IMG/VR virus record: IMGVR_UViG_2861048470_000001
Length of the DNA stretch: 32,620 bases
Direction: 5' to 3' (one strand)
Source of the DNA: a virus
Taxonomy: Duplodnaviria; Heunggongvirae; Uroviricota; Caudoviricetes
Below, in pieces: positions 3,254 through 31,586 of this stretch. The position numbers and the translations under genes were made by a program. Positions within the stretch are counted from its first letter, which is position 1, and each line of letters opens with the position of its first letter. The notes under the pieces are model-generated. The model ran no database searches. It was given only the letters and a program-made list of their open reading frames with translations, and was not told the DNA's origin.

Positions 3254-3525
3254 GTATTCGTATTGAAATTGGCGAACGTTATGTCGTTACCAGTGACAGC
3301 TTTCAGTTTATTCTCCACGAGAAAAAGAGAGCTGAAAGCGGTAAAAACGCCGGTCAGGAATGGCTGGCGGTGGTTGGTTATTACCCGAAATTAAGCCAGC
3401 TCGTTTCAGGCCTGATGCATCACGATATTCTGACCGGAAGCGCAAAGTCTTTTGCTGATTTAAACGTGCAGGTTGAGCAACTCAGCAAGCGTTGTTCAGA
3501 GGCTTTTGGCTCATATGGCCGTTAA
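3250..3525 (+). CDS. Small early-operon hypothetical protein (P2 orf83 position)
   Basis: 91-aa ORF coupled to the upstream ORF; overlaps the start of A by 11 nt. Confidence 0.5.
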   Translation: MSIRIEIGERYVVTSDSFQFILHEKKRAESGKNAGQEWLAVVGYYPKLSQLVSGLMHHDILTGSAKSFADLNVQVEQLSKRCSEAFGSYGR

Positions 3526-5782
3526 AGCCTCCGGGCGTTTTGTCCCTCCGTCAGCATTTGCCGCAGGCACCGGTAAGGCGCTTACCGGTGCTTATGCATG
3601 GAACGCGCCACGCGAGGCTGTCGGGCGCGAAAGACCCCTTACACGTGACGAGATGCGTCAGGTGCAAGGTGTTTTATCCACGATTAACCGCCTGCCTTAC
3701 TTTTTGCGCTCGCTGTTTACTTCACGCTATGACTACATCCGGCGCAATAAAAGCCCGGTGCACGGGTTTTATTTTCTCACATCCACTTTTCAGCGTCGTT
3801 TATGGCCGCGCATTGAGCGTGTGAATCAGCGCCATGAAATGAACACCGACGCGTCGTTGCTGTTTCTGGCAGAGCGTGACCATTATGCGCGTCTGCCGGG
3901 GATGAATGACAAGGAGCTGAAAAAGTTTGCCGCCCGTATCTCATCGCAGCTTTTCATGATGTATGAGGAACTCTGCGATGCCTGGGTGGATGCGCATGGC
4001 GAAAAAGAATCGCTGTTTACGGATGAGGCGCAGGCTCACCTCTATGGTCATGTTGCTGGCGCTGCACGTGCTTTCAATATTTCCCCTCTCTACTGGAAAA
4101 AATACCGTAAAGGGCAGATGACCACGAGGCAGGCATATTCTGCCATTGCCCGTCTGTTTAACGATGAGTGGTGGACTCATCAGCTTAAAGGCCAGCGTAT
4201 GCGCTGGCATGAAGCGTTACTGATAGCTGTCGGGGAGGTCAATAAAGACCGTTCTCCTTATGCCAGTAAACACGCCATTCGTGATGTGCGTGCGCGCCGC
4301 CAGGCAAATCTGGAATTTCTTAAATCGTGTGACCTTGAAAACAGGGAAACCGGCGAGCGCATCGACCTTATCAGTAAGGTGATGGGCAGTATTTCTAATC
4401 CTGAAATTCGCCGGATGGAGCTGATGAACACCATTGCCGGTATTGAGCGTTACGCCGCCGCAGAGGGTGATGTGGGGATGTTTATCACGCTGACTGCGCC
4501 GTCAAAGTATCACCCGACTCGTCAGGTCAGAAAAGGCGAAAGTAAAACCGTTCAGCTTAATCACGGCTGGAACGATGAGGCATTTAATCCAAAGGATGCG
4601 CAGCGTTATCTCTGCCGCATCTGGAGCCTGATGCGCACGGCATTCAAGGATAATGATTTACAGGTCTACGGTTTGCGTGTCGTCGAGCCACACCACGACG
4701 GAACGCCGCACTGGCATATGATGCTTTTTTGTAATTCGCGCCAGCGTAACCAGATTATCGAAATCATGCGTCGCTATGCGCTCAAAGAGGATGGCGACGA
4801 AAGAGGAGCAGCGCGAAACCGTTTTCAGGCAAAACACCTTAATCGGGGCGGTGCTGCGGGGTATATCGCGAAATACATCTCAAAAAACATCGACGGCTAT
4901 GCACTGGATGGTCAGCTCGATAACGATACCGGCAGACCTCTGAAAGATACTGCCGCGGCTGTTACTGCATGGGCGTCAACGTGGCGCATCCCGCAATTTA
5001 AAACGGTTGGTCTGCCGACAATGGGGGCTTACCGTGAACTACGCAAATTGCCTCGCGGCGTCAGCATTGCTGATGAGTTTGACGAACGCGTCGAGGCTGC
5101 ACGCGCTGCCGCAGACAGTGGCGATTTTGCGTTGTATATCAGTGCGCAGGGTGGGGCAAATGTTCCGCGCGATTGCCAGACTGTCAGAGTCGCCCGTAGC
5201 CCGTCGGATGAAGTTAACGAGTACGAGGAAGAAGTCGAGAGAGTGGTCGGCATTTACGCGCCGCATCTCGGCGCGCGTCATATTCATATCACCAGAACGA
5301 CGGACTGGCGCATTGTGCCGAAAGTTCCGGTCGTTGAGCCTTTGACTTTAAAAAGCGGCATCGCCGCGCCTCGGAGTCCTGTCAATAACTGTGGAAAGCT
5401 CAACGGTGGTGATACTTCGTTACCGGCTCCCACACCTTCTGAGCACGCCGCAGCAGTGCTTAATCTGGTTGATGACGGTGTTATCGAATGGAATGACCCG
5501 GAGGTTGTGAGGGCGCTCAGAAGCGCATTAAAACACGGCCTGAGAAGACCAAACCGTCAGCAAAGAAACGGAAGCCCGTTAAAACCACATGAAATTGCAC
5601 CATCGGCCAGACTGACCCGGTCGGAAAGAATGCAAATCACCCGTATCCGCGTTGACCTTGCTCAGAACGGTATCAGGCCGCAGCGATGGGAGCTTGAGGC
5701 GCTGGCGCGTGGGGCAACAGTAAATTATGACGGGAAAAAATTCACGTATCCGGTCGCTGATGAGTGGCCGGGATTCATATAA
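3515..5782 (+). CDS. A: Replication initiation endonuclease A (rolling-circle HUH Rep)
   Basis: Large ORF with an HUH-type motif (TPHWHMMLF) and downstream tyrosine-rich region (AAGYIAKYISKN). The ATG at 3515 (MAVKAS...) gives about 755 aa, close to P2 gpA; the ORF-track start at 3473 would overlap the previous gene more deeply. Confidence 0.9.
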   Translation: MAVKASGRFVPPSAFAAGTGKALTGAYAWNAPREAVGRERPLTRDEMRQVQGVLSTINRLPYFLRSLFTSRYDYIRRNKSPVHGFYFLTSTFQRRLWPRIERVNQRHEMNTDASLLFLAERDHYARLPGMNDKELKKFAARISSQLFMMYEELCDAWVDAHGEKESLFTDEAQAHLYGHVAGAARAFNISPLYWKKYRKGQMTTRQAYSAIARLFNDEWWTHQLKGQRMRWHEALLIAVGEVNKDRSPYASKHAIRDVRARRQANLEFLKSCDLENRETGERIDLISKVMGSISNPEIRRMELMNTIAGIERYAAAEGDVGMFITLTAPSKYHPTRQVRKGESKTVQLNHGWNDEAFNPKDAQRYLCRIWSLMRTAFKDNDLQVYGLRVVEPHHDGTPHWHMMLFCNSRQRNQIIEIMRRYALKEDGDERGAARNRFQAKHLNRGGAAGYIAKYISKNIDGYALDGQLDNDTGRPLKDTAAAVTAWASTWRIPQFKTVGLPTMGAYRELRKLPRGVSIADEFDERVEAARAAADSGDFALYISAQGGANVPRDCQTVRVARSPSDEVNEYEEEVERVVGIYAPHLGARHIHITRTTDWRIVPKVPVVEPLTLKSGIAAPRSPVNNCGKLNGGDTSLPAPTPSEHAAAVLNLVDDGVIEWNDPEVVRALRSALKHGLRRPNRQQRNGSPLKPHEIAPSARLTRSERMQITRIRVDLAQNGIRPQRWELEALARGATVNYDGKKFTYPVADEWPGFI

Positions 5783-5900
5783 ACTGAAATGAACAGCGTT
5801 GCAAGTGTGATAAAAATCATTATACTGTTTTTATATACAGTACTTTAATCTGGAAAGATGCTATAAATGTATATTTCTATAAAAATATATGGTTTATTGA

Positions 5901-5929
5901 TTGTGTATGCTCACTATCAAATTTATACT
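5901..5929 (+). promoter_or_regulatory. Candidate sigma70 promoter for the accessory module (TTGTGT-17 bp-TATACT)
   Basis: Read by eye in the AT-rich spacer upstream of the 6060 gene. Weak -35, good -10. Not validated. Confidence 0.3.
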
Positions 5930-6059
5930 CCGCGCGCAATGTTGAGTATGCTTAAGATATAGCGTTTACAATTCCAGGCTTGAAGGCTCGGGTATAGGTA
6001 AAAATTGAGTGTTCTCGGTTGCTTTTCGTGACATAAGAGGACAGCAAAGGAGGTTGAGT

Positions 6060-6530
6060 ATGTACAGCCCATTGAACATCGCGAATAAGTTTATAGAACT
6101 TGCTTGCGCGGCTGGTATGCCAATCACCCAGATGCAGGCACAAAAGCTGACCTATATAGCACATGGTATAAATCTGGGTTACAAAGGGACGCCTTTGTTA
6201 ACGACACCAGTTTGTGCATGGCGTTATGGTCCAGTGGTTCCAGTTCTGTATAACTATCTTAAAGTTTATGGCCGTAGTCCCATAACACAACCAATACAAG
6301 TTCCATCGGCAATTTCTCAGGAGTTTGACCCTATGACTGAGCAGTTGCTGCAGAACGTTTATAACGTTTACGGTAAATATACCGCTGAGGATTTATCTGC
6401 TTTCACACATCGTGAAGGTACTCCTTGGAAGCAAGCAATGGATAGTCGTATGGATATCATTCCTGATTCCGTTATTCAGGATTACTATCAAAAGCTGCTA
6501 CACGGCGATAGCAATTGCATCGGACTATGA
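6060..6530 (+). CDS. Panacea-domain (DUF4065, SocA/GepA-like) protein; candidate antitoxin
   Basis: About 156 aa from the ATG at 6060, preceded by AAGGAGG. Sequence KLTYIAHGINLGYKGTPLLTTPVCAWRYGPVVPVLYNYL fits the Panacea pattern as I recall it (K.L.Y.A....G.PL....AW..GPV...Y). AT-rich. Confidence 0.65.
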   Translation: MYSPLNIANKFIELACAAGMPITQMQAQKLTYIAHGINLGYKGTPLLTTPVCAWRYGPVVPVLYNYLKVYGRSPITQPIQVPSAISQEFDPMTEQLLQNVYNVYGKYTAEDLSAFTHREGTPWKQAMDSRMDIIPDSVIQDYYQKLLHGDSNCIGL

Positions 6531-6545
6531 GTCCGAATTAAGATA

Positions 6546-6570
6546 ACCCCGTCTATGTACGGGGTTTTTT
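6546..6570 (+). terminator. Rho-independent terminator-like hairpin plus T6
   Basis: ACCCCGT-ctatgt-ACGGGGT followed by TTTTTT; the next ORF's ATG follows immediately at 6571. Confidence 0.6.
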
Positions 6571-7143
6571 ATGCCTGACGATAATAAGAAAGTGACAGCT
6601 GAATTTGATAAAGACCTTCTCAGACGATTGCAGCAAGCTGAGCAGAATCTGATAACTGCCTCTGCGGCTTTGGGAGATGAGGGCTGTTGGGATGAAGAAT
6701 CTCATGAGCCTGAGTCTGTTGAGGACGCTGTTGATGAAATGCAAAAGGAAGAAGAGGATGCTGCGACCATGCAGCGTTTGGATTTATCCAGTCTTAATTT
6801 TCAAATTGCTGAATTGAGTCGCTGTGTTGAAACTATAAGCACTAACCTTGAAAGCGTACAGGCAGAAACCAAAAGAAAAAATGCGGAAACCGACGGCCTG
6901 CTTACGGACAATGAGCTCCGTAGAACTATGGCTGATAAAACATATCAATTCATGATTGTTTGGTGTTGTTTTGTCGGCTGGGTCATATTTATGTATGTAT
7001 TGAAAAAAGATTTTGATCCACCAGAAACAATTATCATTGCGCTTATGGGAACCACAACTGTGAGTATTGTGGGATTGGTTGGGTTTGTTGTTAGTGGTTT
7101 GTTCAAAAGCAACAATAAACCTTCTGGCGACAATAAAAATTAA
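6571..7143 (+). CDS. Acidic coiled-coil protein with two C-terminal transmembrane helices; candidate membrane toxin/effector partner of the Panacea protein
   Basis: 190-aa ORF; N-terminal half charged and helical (LLRRLQQAEQNL..., EEDAATMQRL...); C-terminal hydrophobic stretches YQFMIVWCCFVGWVIFMYVL and IIIALMGTTTVSIVGLVGFVVSGLF. Start uncertain: an internal in-frame ATG (MQRLDL...) has a GAGGA upstream. Confidence 0.6.
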   Translation: MPDDNKKVTAEFDKDLLRRLQQAEQNLITASAALGDEGCWDEESHEPESVEDAVDEMQKEEEDAATMQRLDLSSLNFQIAELSRCVETISTNLESVQAETKRKNAETDGLLTDNELRRTMADKTYQFMIVWCCFVGWVIFMYVLKKDFDPPETIIIALMGTTTVSIVGLVGFVVSGLFKSNNKPSGDNKN

Positions 7144-7152
7144 TCATCAAAG

Positions 7153-7178
7153 TGGCACCTTTGGGTGCTATTTTTTTG
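7153..7178 (+). terminator. Rho-independent terminator closing the accessory module
   Basis: GCACC-tttg-GGTGC hairpin followed by a T7 run, just after the 7143 stop. Confidence 0.55.
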
Positions 7179-7330
7179 CTTTTTCCGCGATTTCTCTGTT
7201 TTTTCCGTGCATCATTTGGTGCATGAGTTTGAATGTGCTTTAGTCTAGCTCACTTGCTTTCTGCTGCCAATGCTAGCTAGGTTTGACGGTGTTCATGCAA
7301 CTGCATTAAAACCGACCCATGAAGCGGGCG

Positions 7331-7349
7331 GGCGAGGCGGGGAAAGCAC
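7331..7349. other. cos: cos site (19-nt cohesive-end sequence GGCGAGGCGGGGAAAGCAC)
   Basis: Exact 19-mer that I recall as the P2 cohesive end, located between the accessory locus and Q as in P2. Confidence 0.6.
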
Positions 7350-7490
7350 TGCGCGCTGGCGGTGGTGCTGATTTTATTTTTTCAGCGTCTGAGCGCGTCG
7401 TGATGGCGTTTAGATTGTGCGCCGGGGCGTTGGTGTGTCTGCGGGCTGTTTTGTGCGGTGGTGAGCGTGTGAGGGCGTGATGACGGGGGG

Positions 7491-7513
7491 TAAAAAAGCC
7501 GCCCGCAGGCGGC
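7491..7513 (-). terminator. Rho-independent terminator downstream of Q (minus strand)
   Basis: GCCGCC-cgca-GGCGGC hairpin; on the minus strand it is followed by a T-run (plus-strand AAAAAA at 7492-7497). Confidence 0.55.
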
Positions 7514-7518
7514 GATGT

Positions 7519-8553
7519 TCAGCCGTTGTCAGTGTCCAGTGAGTAGTTTTTAAAGCGGATGACCTCCTGACCGAGCCAGCCGTTTATCTCGCGGATCCTG
7601 TCCTGTAACGGGATAAGCTCATTGCGGACAAAGACCTTTGCCACTTTCTCAATATCACCCAGCGACCCGACGTTCTCCGGCTTGCCGCCCATCAACTGAA
7701 AAGGGATGCGGTGCGCGTCCAGCAGGTCTGCGGCGCTGGCTTTTTTGATATTAAAAAAATCGTCCTTCGTTGCCACTTCACTGAGCGGGATAATTTTAAT
7801 GCCGTCGGCTTTCCCTTGCGGGGCATAGAGAAACAGATTTTTAAAGTTGTTGCGGCCTTTCGACTTCACCATGTTTTCGCGGAGCATTTCGATATCGTTG
7901 CGATCCTGCACGGCATCAGTGACGTACATGATGTATCCGGCATGTGCGCCGTTTTCGTAATACTTGCGGCGGAACAGCGTGGCTGACTCATTCAGCCAGG
8001 CAGAGTTAAGGGCGCTGAGATATTCCGGCAGGCCGTACAGCTCCTGATTAATATCCGGCTCCAGCAGATGAAACACGGAGCCGGGCGTGAAAGGTGTCGG
8101 CTCGTTGAAGGACGGCACCCACCAGTAAACATCCTCCTCCACGCCACGGCGGGTATATTTTGCCGGTGAGGTTTCCAGTCTGATGACCTTACCGGTGGTA
8201 CTGTAACGCTTTTCCAGAAACGCATTACCGAACACCAGAAAATCCAGCACAAAGCGGCTGAAATCCTGCTGGGAAAGCCACGGATGCGGGATAAATGTCG
8301 AGGCCAGAATATTACGTTTGACGTAAATCGGTGAGCTGTGATGCACGGCAGCACGCAGGCTTTTTGCCAGACCGGTAAAGCTGATCGGTGGCTCATACCA
8401 TCTGCCGTTACTGATGCACTCGACGTAATCCAGAATGTCACGGCGGTCGAGTACCGGCACCGGCTCACCAAAGGTGAATGCTTCCATTTTCGGGGCGCTG
8501 GCGGTCATTGTTTTTGCCGCAGGTTGCGGTGTTTTCCCTTTTTTCTTGCTCAT
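7519..8553 (-). CDS. Q: Portal protein Q
   Basis: 344-aa ORF, same length and position as P2 gpQ; start overlaps the P stop. Confidence 0.9.
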   Translation of the reverse strand: MSKKKGKTPQPAAKTMTASAPKMEAFTFGEPVPVLDRRDILDYVECISNGRWYEPPISFTGLAKSLRAAVHHSSPIYVKRNILASTFIPHPWLSQQDFSRFVLDFLVFGNAFLEKRYSTTGKVIRLETSPAKYTRRGVEEDVYWWVPSFNEPTPFTPGSVFHLLEPDINQELYGLPEYLSALNSAWLNESATLFRRKYYENGAHAGYIMYVTDAVQDRNDIEMLRENMVKSKGRNNFKNLFLYAPQGKADGIKIIPLSEVATKDDFFNIKKASAADLLDAHRIPFQLMGGKPENVGSLGDIEKVAKVFVRNELIPLQDRIREINGWLGQEVIRFKNYSLDTDNG

Positions 8554-10325
8554 CAGTAAAACTCCAGAATGGTGGATGTCAGCGGGGTGCTGATACCGGC
8601 GGTGAGTGGCTCATTTAACAGGGCGTGCATGGTCGCCCAGGCGAGGTCGGCGTGGCTGGCTTCCTCGCTGCGGTTGGCCTCATAGGTGGCGCTGCGTCCG
8701 CTGCTGGTCATGGTCTTGCGGATAGCCATAAACGAGCTGGTGATGTCGGTGGCGCTGACGTCGTATTCCAGACAGCCACGGCGGATAACGTCTTTTGCCT
8801 TGAGCACCATTGCGGTTTTCATTTCCGGCGTGTAGCGGATATCACGCGCGGCGGGATAGAACGAGCGCACGAGCTGGAACACGCCGACACCGAGGCCGGT
8901 GGCATCAATTCCGATGTATTCGACGTTGTATTTTTCGGTGAGTTTGCGGATGGATTCAGCCTGGGTGGCAAAGTCCATGCCTTTCCACTGGTGACGCTCA
9001 AGTATTCTGAATTTGCCACCGGCCACCACCGGCGGTGCCAGCACCACGCATCCGGCACTGTCGCCACGGTGTGACGGGTCGTAACCAATCCATACCGGGC
9101 GGGAGCCGAACGGATTGGCGGCAAACGGCGCATAGTCTTCCCATTCTTCCAGCGTGTCGACCATGCAGCGTTGCAGCTCCTCGAACGGGAACACCGACGC
9201 CTTGTCGTCAACAAATTCACACATGAACAGGTTTTTAAAATCGTCGGCGCTGTTTTCACGTTTGAGCTGCTCAATGTCGAACAGCGTGCAGCCACCTTTC
9301 AGGGCGTCCTCAATGGTGACAATCTGCCGCCACTGGCCGTCCGCACAGAGAAGCCCCCCGGCAAGGGCGTTATGACTGACGTCGATTTCCACACGTTCGG
9401 CGGCGCTGGCACGTCCCCGGTTGAACAGTTCACCTGACCAGAACGGGTAGGCGTCGTGCGCCAGCGTGGACGGGGTGGAGAAATAGGTCGAGCGCAGGTG
9501 ACTCTGTGAGGCCATACCTGATGCCACCTTACGCAGTACCTGAAAATTCGGGATCCAGAAAATCTCATCGACGTACAGGTCGCCGTTATGGCTCTGCGCG
9601 GTGTTGGAGTTGGTGCCGAGAAAAATCAGTTTTGCGCCGTTATTGCCCAGGACAATCGGGTCACCGGTAAGGTCAACGTCCACCAGACGGGCAAAGGCGA
9701 TGATGTATTCGCGGAACACATACGCCTGCGTTTTACTGGCCGACAGAAAAATCTGGTTATGACCGGTTTTCAGGGCGCGCAGCAGTGCCTCGCGGGAAAA
9801 ATAAAACGTCGCGCCAATCTGGCGGGATTTCAGGATATCGCGGATGCGGTGCTCAAGCCCGGCGCGATACCAGTGCAACTGATAGTCGAAAGACTGCTCA
9901 AAGAAAATCTGCTCCAGCTTTTCGATGGCTTCGTCACTGAAAAAATTCTTTTTCGGTTTGCGACGCCCGCCTTTGTTGCGGTTAGCGACGTTCGGATTAA
10001 GGTCTGCCTCGTTGCCGGTCTGGCTGTAGCGATTTACCCGTGCCAGTCGTTCAATCTGGCGTCCCAGCAGGTCAATTTCCTTGAAGTCACCGCCGGTTTT
10101 CTGCGGTTTGATGATGAGCTGGGTCAGCCGCGCTTCCAGGCTCATTTCGACACGGCTGATGGGGGCAACGCTGTCCCAGCCGTCGCGCTGTTTCCAGCTC
10201 TGCACCGTCGGGCGTTTCATCTGCAACATGGCGGCAATCTGCGGCACGGAAAACCCCTGCCAGTACAGCAGCGCCGCCTGACGACGCGGGTCGTGTAAAA
10301 GAGTGGTGTCTGTGGTGATGGTCAT
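8553..10325 (-). CDS. P: Terminase large (ATPase) subunit P
   Basis: About 590 aa from the internal Met (MTITTD...); transcribed divergently from O, as in P2. Confidence 0.9.
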   Translation of the reverse strand: MTITTDTTLLHDPRRQAALLYWQGFSVPQIAAMLQMKRPTVQSWKQRDGWDSVAPISRVEMSLEARLTQLIIKPQKTGGDFKEIDLLGRQIERLARVNRYSQTGNEADLNPNVANRNKGGRRKPKKNFFSDEAIEKLEQIFFEQSFDYQLHWYRAGLEHRIRDILKSRQIGATFYFSREALLRALKTGHNQIFLSASKTQAYVFREYIIAFARLVDVDLTGDPIVLGNNGAKLIFLGTNSNTAQSHNGDLYVDEIFWIPNFQVLRKVASGMASQSHLRSTYFSTPSTLAHDAYPFWSGELFNRGRASAAERVEIDVSHNALAGGLLCADGQWRQIVTIEDALKGGCTLFDIEQLKRENSADDFKNLFMCEFVDDKASVFPFEELQRCMVDTLEEWEDYAPFAANPFGSRPVWIGYDPSHRGDSAGCVVLAPPVVAGGKFRILERHQWKGMDFATQAESIRKLTEKYNVEYIGIDATGLGVGVFQLVRSFYPAARDIRYTPEMKTAMVLKAKDVIRRGCLEYDVSATDITSSFMAIRKTMTSSGRSATYEANRSEEASHADLAWATMHALLNEPLTAGISTPLTSTILEFY

Positions 10326-10498
10326 GAATACCTCGCCGTGATGAATACACGGCAAGGCTACTGAGTCGCGCCCCGCGATTCGCTAAGGTGCTGTTGTGTC
10401 AGTGATAAGCCATCCGGGACTGATGGCGGAGGATGCGCATCGTCGGGAAACTGATGCCGACATGTGACTCCTCTACTCACTATTCAGGACTCCTGACA

Positions 10499-31559: not shown

Positions 31560-31586
31560 CCCCCACATGATGTGGGGTTTTTTTTT
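31560..31586 (+). terminator. Rho-independent terminator (likely chromosomal) upstream of fieF
   Basis: CCCCACA-tga-TGTGGGG stem followed by T9. Confidence 0.5.

Follow-up and report, generated by a model that had tools for sequence, protein, structure and literature searches.

The panA–panT junction

The stretch of DNA analysed here (the window; 32,620 nucleotides of IMG/VR virus record IMGVR_UViG_2861048470_000001) is a P2-like prophage that carries, in the hotspot between gpA and the portal gene, a PanAT toxin–antitoxin (TA) cassette. The antitoxin gene, panA, is separated from the toxin gene, panT, by a hairpin whose run of six T residues leads directly into the panT ATG. We consider it probable, on the strength of the sequence comparisons below, that this hairpin is an intra-operon intrinsic (Rho-independent) terminator fused to the translation-initiation region of panT. 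The features of the junction are as follows (window coordinates; the stop codon, hairpin arms and loop are direct readings of the sequence).

6060-6530, + strand: panA, Panacea-domain antitoxin, 156 aa (Pfam PF13274)
6528-6530, + strand: panA stop codon, TGA
6531-6544, + strand: spacer of 14 nt from the panA stop to the hairpin base (14-15 nt in 21 of 21 loci)
6545-6552, + strand: hairpin 5' arm, AACCCCGT
6553-6558, + strand: hairpin loop, CTATGT
6559-6566, + strand: hairpin 3' arm, ACGGGGTT
6547-6552 / 6559-6564, + strand: G-C core, inside the hairpin (6545-6566)
6565-6570, + strand: T-run of six T (U-tract, and putative spacer between Shine-Dalgarno sequence and AUG), overlapping the last two stem bases
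6571-6573, + strand: panT ATG, abutting the T-run
6571-7143, + strand: panT, membrane toxin homologue, 190 aa (homology to PanT of phage PhiR47_1)

The original prediction had spoken of a 'Panacea gene' and a 'putative toxin gene', and both names are borne out by a profile match and by homology to a validated PanA/PanT pair. The panA product matches PF13274 (Panacea, DUF4065) with E=1.4e-17 and 65.1 bits against a cut-off of 25.7, and shares 45% identity (E=1e-45) with the PanA encoded next to panT in PhiR47_1. In E. coli genomes the PhiR47_1-type PanA is WP_000287252.1, the validated PanA Esc. col., whose antitoxin activity was established with the membrane pore-forming toxin PanT Esc. col. 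(Kurata et al, 2022). PanT is 44% identical to the PanT of PhiR47_1 over 95 aa of its C-terminal half (E=1e-26); its Pfam matches are all sub-threshold, and 72 homologues were found. Its N-terminus, MPDDNKKVTAEF, is hydrophilic, acidic and without a signal peptide. The acidic N-terminal part (30 D+E against 13 K+R in residues 1-120) and two C-terminal hydrophobic segments (approximately 125-146 and 152-178; Kyte-Doolittle) fit the toxin-cluster description in PMC8832971. Wherever both genes were detected, that is, in nearly all of the loci fetched, panA lay immediately 5' of panT in the same order. The cassette is thus, by homology, a PanAT type II TA pair, with PanT the predicted toxin and PanA its predicted neutraliser; no defence-system model in PADLOC matches either protein.

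A GC stem with T6 had been predicted between the panA stop and the ATG at 6571, and its coordinates (6546-6573) were right to within one base; the ATG does follow the T-run directly. The element has the G-C-rich stem-loop of an intrinsic terminator (8 bp in the stem, 5 of them G-C, and a loop of 6 nt) and the U-rich tract (UUUUUUAU, that is, T6 and then ATG). It is located on the sense strand, 3' of a coding region and, at 14 nt past the panA stop, away from the terminating ribosome. When 6520-6600 was folded with ViennaRNA, the hairpin was both the minimum free energy and the centroid structure (z = -3.2), and none of 200 shuffled sequences folded as well. Its free energy is -9.1 kcal/mol for the core and -13.1 kcal/mol for the extended stem, and in the minimum free energy structure the helix continues through the U-tract up to the A of the panT AUG.

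A consensus scan placed the hairpin, with its 8 pairs (5 G-C), second among the terminator-like sites of the first 20 kb. The scan as a whole has limited specificity: it found 39 sites, where shuffled sequences gave 23.2 +/- 5.6. Under a strict definition, which demanded a perfect stem of 6 bp or more, 5 or more G-C pairs in it, a loop of 3-8 nt and then T6, the 32.6-kb window has three sites, counting both strands, against a mean of 0.017 in 300 first-order Markov simulations. The only two others are at 7513-7498 (- strand), just past the portal gene, and at 31561-31585 (+ strand; CCCCACATGATGTGGGG, followed by T8). With the G-C core taken as the stem, a d'Aubenton-Carafa-type score was +15 for the identical hairpin of locus L039 and reached +40 in L040; we do not rely on these values, as automatic stem trimming was inconsistent and the formula was calibrated on older energy parameters.

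An Rfam search of 5700-7550 in E-value mode placed no family over the hairpin; the only hit, a PhrS match at 7043-7178, was sub-threshold (E=0.086) and was taken as chance. A terminator acting on the minus strand was considered and rejected: the tail there would be ATCTTAATTC, and the G-U pairs described below would turn into mismatches. A second, small hairpin lies at 6520-6536 (UCGGACU-AUG-AGUCCGA), with the panA stop codon in and beside its loop. L006 and L039 keep it by means of a U-G pair, and L041 by a compensatory change (GGTC/GACC); in L012, L010 and L040 it is broken, and more distant clades do not have it.

Conservation and covariation of the hairpin

Relatives of the cassette were collected by exact-protein look-ups, by metagenome and viral scans with a PanT alignment and by a viral scan with a PanA alignment. 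A scan of genome contigs returned only two loci, and the comparative set comes from the metagenome, viral and exact-protein look-ups. It comprises 21 distinct PanAT loci (24 including L203, L208 and L210) with a hairpin at the same place. All close relatives have a gap of 40-41 nt with the same stem, T6-7 and ATG. Relatives whose PanA is only 43-61% identical keep the architecture with other stems, namely CCCCAT/ATGGGG, TCCCGT/ACGGGA, CCCCGC/GCGGGG, GCCCCGT/GCGGGGC and GCCTCGCAA/TTGCGAGGC.

We scored the nine-pair helix in a MAFFT alignment of the 21 distinct sequences (A2), in which PanA identity falls to 43%. Paired combinations filled 95.2% of the cells (shuffled mean 85.0), seven of the nine pairs changed on both sides (shuffled mean 3.8) and the covariation score was 0.408 (0.225 when shuffled); not one of 500 shuffles reached any of these values. 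The sequences are related by descent, so this control overstates significance. Two observations are therefore stronger: pairing dropped to 31-56% when the 3' partner was slid by 1-3 columns, and the compensatory changes fall on several different branches of a neighbour-joining tree of PanA. The same tree separates the loci with the hairpin, as one clade, from the lambdoid loci without it, as the other. RNAalifold independently predicted the same helix. The outer pair (19-41) is G-U in seven sequences, and pair 26-34 is U-G in one; read from the opposite strand, these would become A-C or C-A mismatches, which argues that the structure under selection is that of the + strand RNA.

Within the close clade, the mean pairwise identity is 0.95 for the stem arms, whose sole change is compensatory, and 1.00 for the T-run (T6-7, invariant), against 0.54 for panA third codon positions. 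The loop and the spacer (16 nt 5' of the CCCC core) each have 0.69. A T-rich tail follows the stem in 19 of the 21 loci. Loop length (3-7), tail length and spacer sequence vary, and yet the distance from stop codon to stem is 14-15 nt in every one of them.

These data bear on the suspicion that the hairpin is a palindrome that arose by chance, or a generic mobile repeat that does nothing at this locus. The bare pattern CCCCGT-N6-ACGGGG-T6 does occur in 113 viral contigs, most of them unrelated to PanAT. The hairpins in those contigs, however, are ordinary terminators of other kinds, whose loops and flanks differ, and PanAT made up only 4 of the 80 inspected, on which ground we rejected a mobile or repeated element. 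The ATG directly abuts the T-run in 17 of the 21 PanAT loci, compared with 3 of 76 unrelated viral hairpins with the same stem and T6. As the PanAT hairpin covaries, holds a fixed position and belongs to a class of site expected 0.017 times per window, covariation and conservation refute this reading, to which we attach next to no weight. We likewise discarded the idea of a portable module of PanA plus terminator for swapping toxin partners: all hairpin loci carry the same T3-type PanT. Where a more distant panA is paired with a different membrane toxin, the two genes overlap or leave a short gap, and there is no hairpin.

The start codon of panT

The original prediction had offered an internal ATG (MQRLDL...) as an alternative start of panT, and this has to be abandoned. 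The PGAP annotation starts panT at 6571, and 14 PanT homologues (62-100% identity) of 190-192 aa align from residue 1 (MP[DE][DE]NK...DLLxRLQxAExNLxTASAAL). All close homologues keep the 66 N-terminal codons in frame, and Met67 is I, L or T in several homologues. The ratio of nonsynonymous to synonymous substitution rates (dN/dS) is 0.31-0.40 in codons 1-66 and 0.07 in codons 67-190, which shows that the N-terminal region is translated but less constrained. Over the first six codons, the identities at codon positions 1, 2 and 3 are 0.92, 1.00 and 0.56. From this comparison the true start is the ATG at 6571.

There is little to recommend a model in which the hairpin is a complete terminator that ends the panA unit, with panT either expressed from its own promoter or starting at the internal ATG (6769). 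In its favour are some public gene calls for PanT of 124-137 aa, several of which begin at internal codons, and a GAGGA 5' of the internal ATG. Against it are the purifying selection on codons 1-66, the variable Met67 and the constant adjacency and order of the two genes. Nor is there a promoter-like site in 6400-6571; a panT promoter or leaderless start inside the hairpin was rejected, since nothing there matches -10/-35 elements and its one AT-rich part, the loop, shows no conservation. We regard the model as scarcely credible and the 124-137 aa PanT entries as miscalls. Entries of 137 and 65 aa likewise exist for the 156-aa PanA. The inconsistent annotation of PanT and PanA is probably due to the missing free Shine-Dalgarno (SD) sequence.

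Ribosome-binding sites and the upstream promoter

The two genes differ markedly in their ribosome-binding sites (RBSs). The relevant elements, with those of the presumed promoter, are:

5799-5826, + strand: predicted sigma-70 promoter of the cassette, TTGCAA-16-TATACT (consensus scan, 9/12 matches; a pattern match only)
5823-5842, + strand: LexA (SOS) box-like palindrome, TACTGTTTTTATATACAGTA, near-consensus and overlapping the -10 hexamer
6047-6054, + strand: panA consensus SD, AAGGAGGT, 5-nt spacer (anti-SD duplex -12.3 kcal/mol)
6561-6565 (-10 to -6), + strand: SD-like GGGGU, putatively of panT, in the hairpin 3' arm (anti-SD duplex -5.7 kcal/mol)

The strong SD of panA is conserved in homologues, and opening the region from -15 to +5 around its start would cost 4.3 kcal/mol. 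For panT the same region would cost 13.5 kcal/mol, and 13-29 kcal/mol across the hairpin loci. The original prediction saw no obvious SD before panT. No free SD is indeed present, but the statement missed GGGGU, the only SD-like element of panT, which lies within the 3' arm. Relatives without the hairpin have a panT SD that is just as weak (-3.4 to -5.6 kcal/mol), yet the opening cost is only 4-9 kcal/mol. With GGGGU in its 3' arm, the hairpin probably also represses panT translation. We suggest that the abutment of ATG and T-run is conserved because the G-run of the 3' arm would serve as the SD and the U-tract as the spacer between SD and AUG.

The site at 5799-5826 is the only good promoter-like site 5' of panA, and 5823-5842 is the only place in the window with CTGT-N8-ACAG. 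Each of the eight near-clade loci has a CTG-N10-CAG box 229-251 nt 5' of panA, although the flanks have diverged. LexA-like boxes also precede the lambdoid PanAT loci, but not those of intermediate clades. This pattern suggests that the cassette is under SOS control and strengthens the analogy to colicin operons drawn below. In L007 a LexA-like box follows dinI, immediately 5' of panA. If the promoter in the window is real, the panA leader is about 230 nt long and AT-rich (within 5783-6059).

A probable terminator fused to the start of panT

The results presented above suggest the following model. Transcription would start 5' of panA, probably at the LexA-box promoter (approximately 5799-5842). 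Intrinsic terminators have 3' ends 7-9 nt past the stem, which here corresponds roughly to the AUG. Part of the RNA polymerases would terminate in the U-tract, at approximately 6568-6573, to give a panA-only mRNA capped by a protective 3' hairpin, and the remainder would read through into panT. On the read-through mRNA, the helix would enclose GGGGU and the following bases as far as the A of the AUG, such that panT is poorly translated, and panA would be translated from its consensus, unstructured SD. The net effect would be a large excess of antitoxin over pore-forming toxin. Since PanT is a homologue of a validated pore-forming PanT, tight control of this kind is to be expected. We infer from the sequence that RNA polymerase terminates at the U-tract, with some efficiency, and that GGGG acts as an SD. 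The proposal that a terminator attenuates toxin expression and keeps the antitoxin in excess was part of the original prediction, and clade-wide conservation, compensatory stem changes and RBS asymmetry now lend it support.

Several points weigh against this model. With a short core stem of 6 G-C-rich pairs, a 6-nt loop and -9 to -13 kcal/mol, the hairpin may terminate only weakly. The E. coli PanAT that has been validated functions with no such hairpin, across a 22-nt gap. G-rich 3' arms with C-rich 5' arms are common in ordinary terminators, and so do not of themselves speak for an SD in the 3' arm. Finally, two sister lineages (L042 and L048) have lost the free U-tract and still have the hairpin just 5' of the ATG. 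The hairpin can evidently be maintained where it is no canonical terminator, which favours a role in translation or RNA stability at least there, and it must have a value beyond termination.

These two loci would suit a purely translational operator, in which the hairpin sequesters the panT RBS, the U-run is a spacer or an S1-binding leader and termination is negligible. The high opening cost of the panT RBS in all hairpin loci points the same way, as does a G-run 6-8 nt from the AUG in 18 of the 21. It would leave unexplained why the T-run of 6-7 never varies within the close clade and occurs in 19 of 21 loci, given that an SD spacer need not be all U, and why the stem lies 14-15 nt beyond the stop, a distance that keeps it free of the terminating ribosome. 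We consider such an operator unlikely as the sole function.

A hairpin acting only as a barrier to 3' exonucleases, or as an RNase site that leaves a stable panA mRNA after cleavage, is a much weaker candidate. Terminator hairpins do stabilise upstream mRNA. Differential decay is also known to set the ratio of products in parD of R1, through limited degradation of kis-kid mRNA (PMC3920265). But this explanation accounts neither for the conserved U-tract nor for the abutting ATG, and no cleavage motif was identified; we think it very improbable.

The constant distance between panA stop and stem raises a different possibility, which we rate somewhat below the translational operator. In a translation-gated attenuator, a ribosome closely behind RNA polymerase would hinder the hairpin, and panT would be read through mainly when panA had just been translated. 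That the spacer keeps its length in 21 loci while its sequence and the lengths of loop and tail vary is what this would predict. A ribosome on a stop codon should reach only about 10 nt past it, judging by toeprint positions, and may thus not touch the stem. Short spacers, moreover, seldom gain indels anyway, and the argument is purely inferential. For the terminator tR2, Li et al (2016; PMC4824070) found nearly full repression at short distances between stop and terminator, sequence-dependent behaviour at 17-18 bp (efficiency 0.12 versus 0.8) and maximal termination beyond 30 bp. The spacing of 14-15 nt falls within this ribosome-dependent range, so that translation-dependent read-through is possible.

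We put forward, as no more than a long shot, a bolder version of the terminator model that combines these elements in a single SOS-inducible switch. Here the 14-15-nt spacing would let the ribosome finishing panA modulate hairpin formation, so that panA translation licenses read-through; the 3' arm would double as the SD and the U-tract as the spacer between SD and AUG. The mRNA would then be extended into the toxin gene only on transcripts that had just made antitoxin.

Comparison with known systems

One close functional parallel to the proposed terminator is found in type III TA systems (ToxIN, CptIN, TenpIN). As here, the antitoxin comes first and the toxin second under a single promoter, with a terminator directly 5' of the toxin gene, and the modules act in phage defence on mobile elements. 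A 2016 review described a Rho-independent terminator between the genes as 'unique to Type III' TA systems, where it is thought to set a high ratio of antitoxin to toxin (PMC5086642). In contrast to the Panacea-domain protein encoded here, the type III antitoxin is a tandem-repeat RNA, and no tandem repeats were found in 5783-7290. The PanAT hairpin may thus, by analogy, work like the type III inter-gene terminators, without the cassette belonging to that family.

A second parallel is cei-T1-cel of ColE7, which has in succession an SOS (LexA) promoter, a protective gene, an intercistronic terminator stem-loop and a lethal membrane-active gene; the predicted promoter with its LexA-box-like palindrome, panA, the hairpin and panT would form a matching series. 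The T1 stem-loop has been depicted jointly with the downstream gene's SD and start codon, and the product of the lethal gene is kept below a lethal dose (PMC2896534). The proteins are non-homologous, however. Cel belongs to the small lipoproteins and carries a signal peptide. PanT, by contrast, combines an acidic cytoplasmic N-terminus with two C-terminal hydrophobic segments and, having no signal peptide, does not resemble a lysis lipoprotein with signal peptide and lipobox. T1 also has GGA motifs for CsrA, of which none is evident at the PanAT hairpin. The comparison is therefore one of analogy only.

For a type II operon there is the internal terminator of plasmid HicAB, again a G/C-rich hairpin with a U-tract; experiments published only in 2025 demonstrated that it sets the ratio between the operon's two products (Lin et al, NAR 2025; PMC11878559). 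The families are unrelated and the gene order is reversed: in HicAB the toxin comes first and the terminator raises toxin, whereas with the antitoxin first, as in PanAT, the opposite effect is predicted. Given these three precedents, the principle of an inter-gene terminator is already known.

The E. coli pair (WP_000287252.1 / WP_000019185.1; PhiR47_1) shares homologous proteins with the cassette described here, the order A then T, a prophage location and a LexA-box-like sequence upstream. It differs in having a free SD (AGGGA) and no hairpin in its 22-nt gap, and it belongs to the clade that is sister to the hairpin-bearing PanA. In part of the supplement to Kurata et al (2022), most T3-type pairs overlap or have a gap of no more than 14 nt; longer gaps are those of 22 nt, in the validated E. 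coli pair, and of 31 and 55 nt in two others. The word 'terminator' occurs neither in Kurata et al (2022) nor in the PNAS network paper of 2023, and 'intergenic' does not occur in the latter. A conserved, covarying terminator hairpin in a PanAT clade thus appears to be undescribed in the searchable literature. In PhiR47_1 (L002, 1353-1372) a hairpin without T-run, ACCCGTACATATACGGGT, lies right after panT and resembles the intergenic hairpin of the window, ACCCCGTCTATGTACGGGGT; the likeness may be coincidental or left over from a rearrangement.

The cassette and its surroundings

The features around the cassette are:

3473-5782: gpA replication endonuclease
7149-7181, + strand: operon-end terminator-like hairpin and T-run (-13.7 kcal/mol)
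7519-8553, - strand: portal gene
8553-10355, - strand: terminase gene

The variable cassette has its right edge at about 7288, from which point on the window shares 95-97% identity with P2-like phages. Beyond it, at 7331-7349, is GGCGAGGCGGGGAAAGCAC, which resembles the 19-nt cohesive-end sequence of P2. The 1.5 kb from gpA to about 7288 correspond to the gpA/gpQ hotspot, which Rousset et al (2022; PMC9122126) described as a site of accessory and defence genes. The ETEC strains 120899 and TW10722 have a cassette identical to that of the window. The hairpin and T-run after panT were present in only four of the loci examined (the window, L006, L007 and L040) and are thus less conserved than the internal hairpin. 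A promoter-like site at 7270-7242 (- strand; TTGGCA-17-TAGACT) is directed back at the 3' end of panT, making an antisense transcript possible.

Some relatives carry additional genes. An extra ORF of 214 aa without a Pfam match lies 20 nt past panT in the locus that encodes P0008 (L009, 3096-3740; L010, 1788-2432), and some PanAT cassettes may thus have three genes. In L007 a 64-aa ORF and a DinI-family gene, together at 1152-1589, lie between gpA and the cassette.

Implications

Control of the toxin in type II TA and abortive-infection systems is usually credited to autoregulation, translational coupling and antitoxin turnover. The comparisons described here suggest that a phage-borne clade of PanAT inserted, and has long kept, a terminator fused to the start of the toxin gene, and that the sister clade studied experimentally lacks it. 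The two clades would form a natural pair for testing how the ratio of antitoxin to toxin is set. The finding also matters for annotation, as it bears on the correct start of panT, and for the cloning and expression of PanAT cassettes. If the licensing switch and the SOS promoter both proved real, the cassette would be a suicide module triggered by damage or infection, with the logic of colicin lysis inside a type II TA system.

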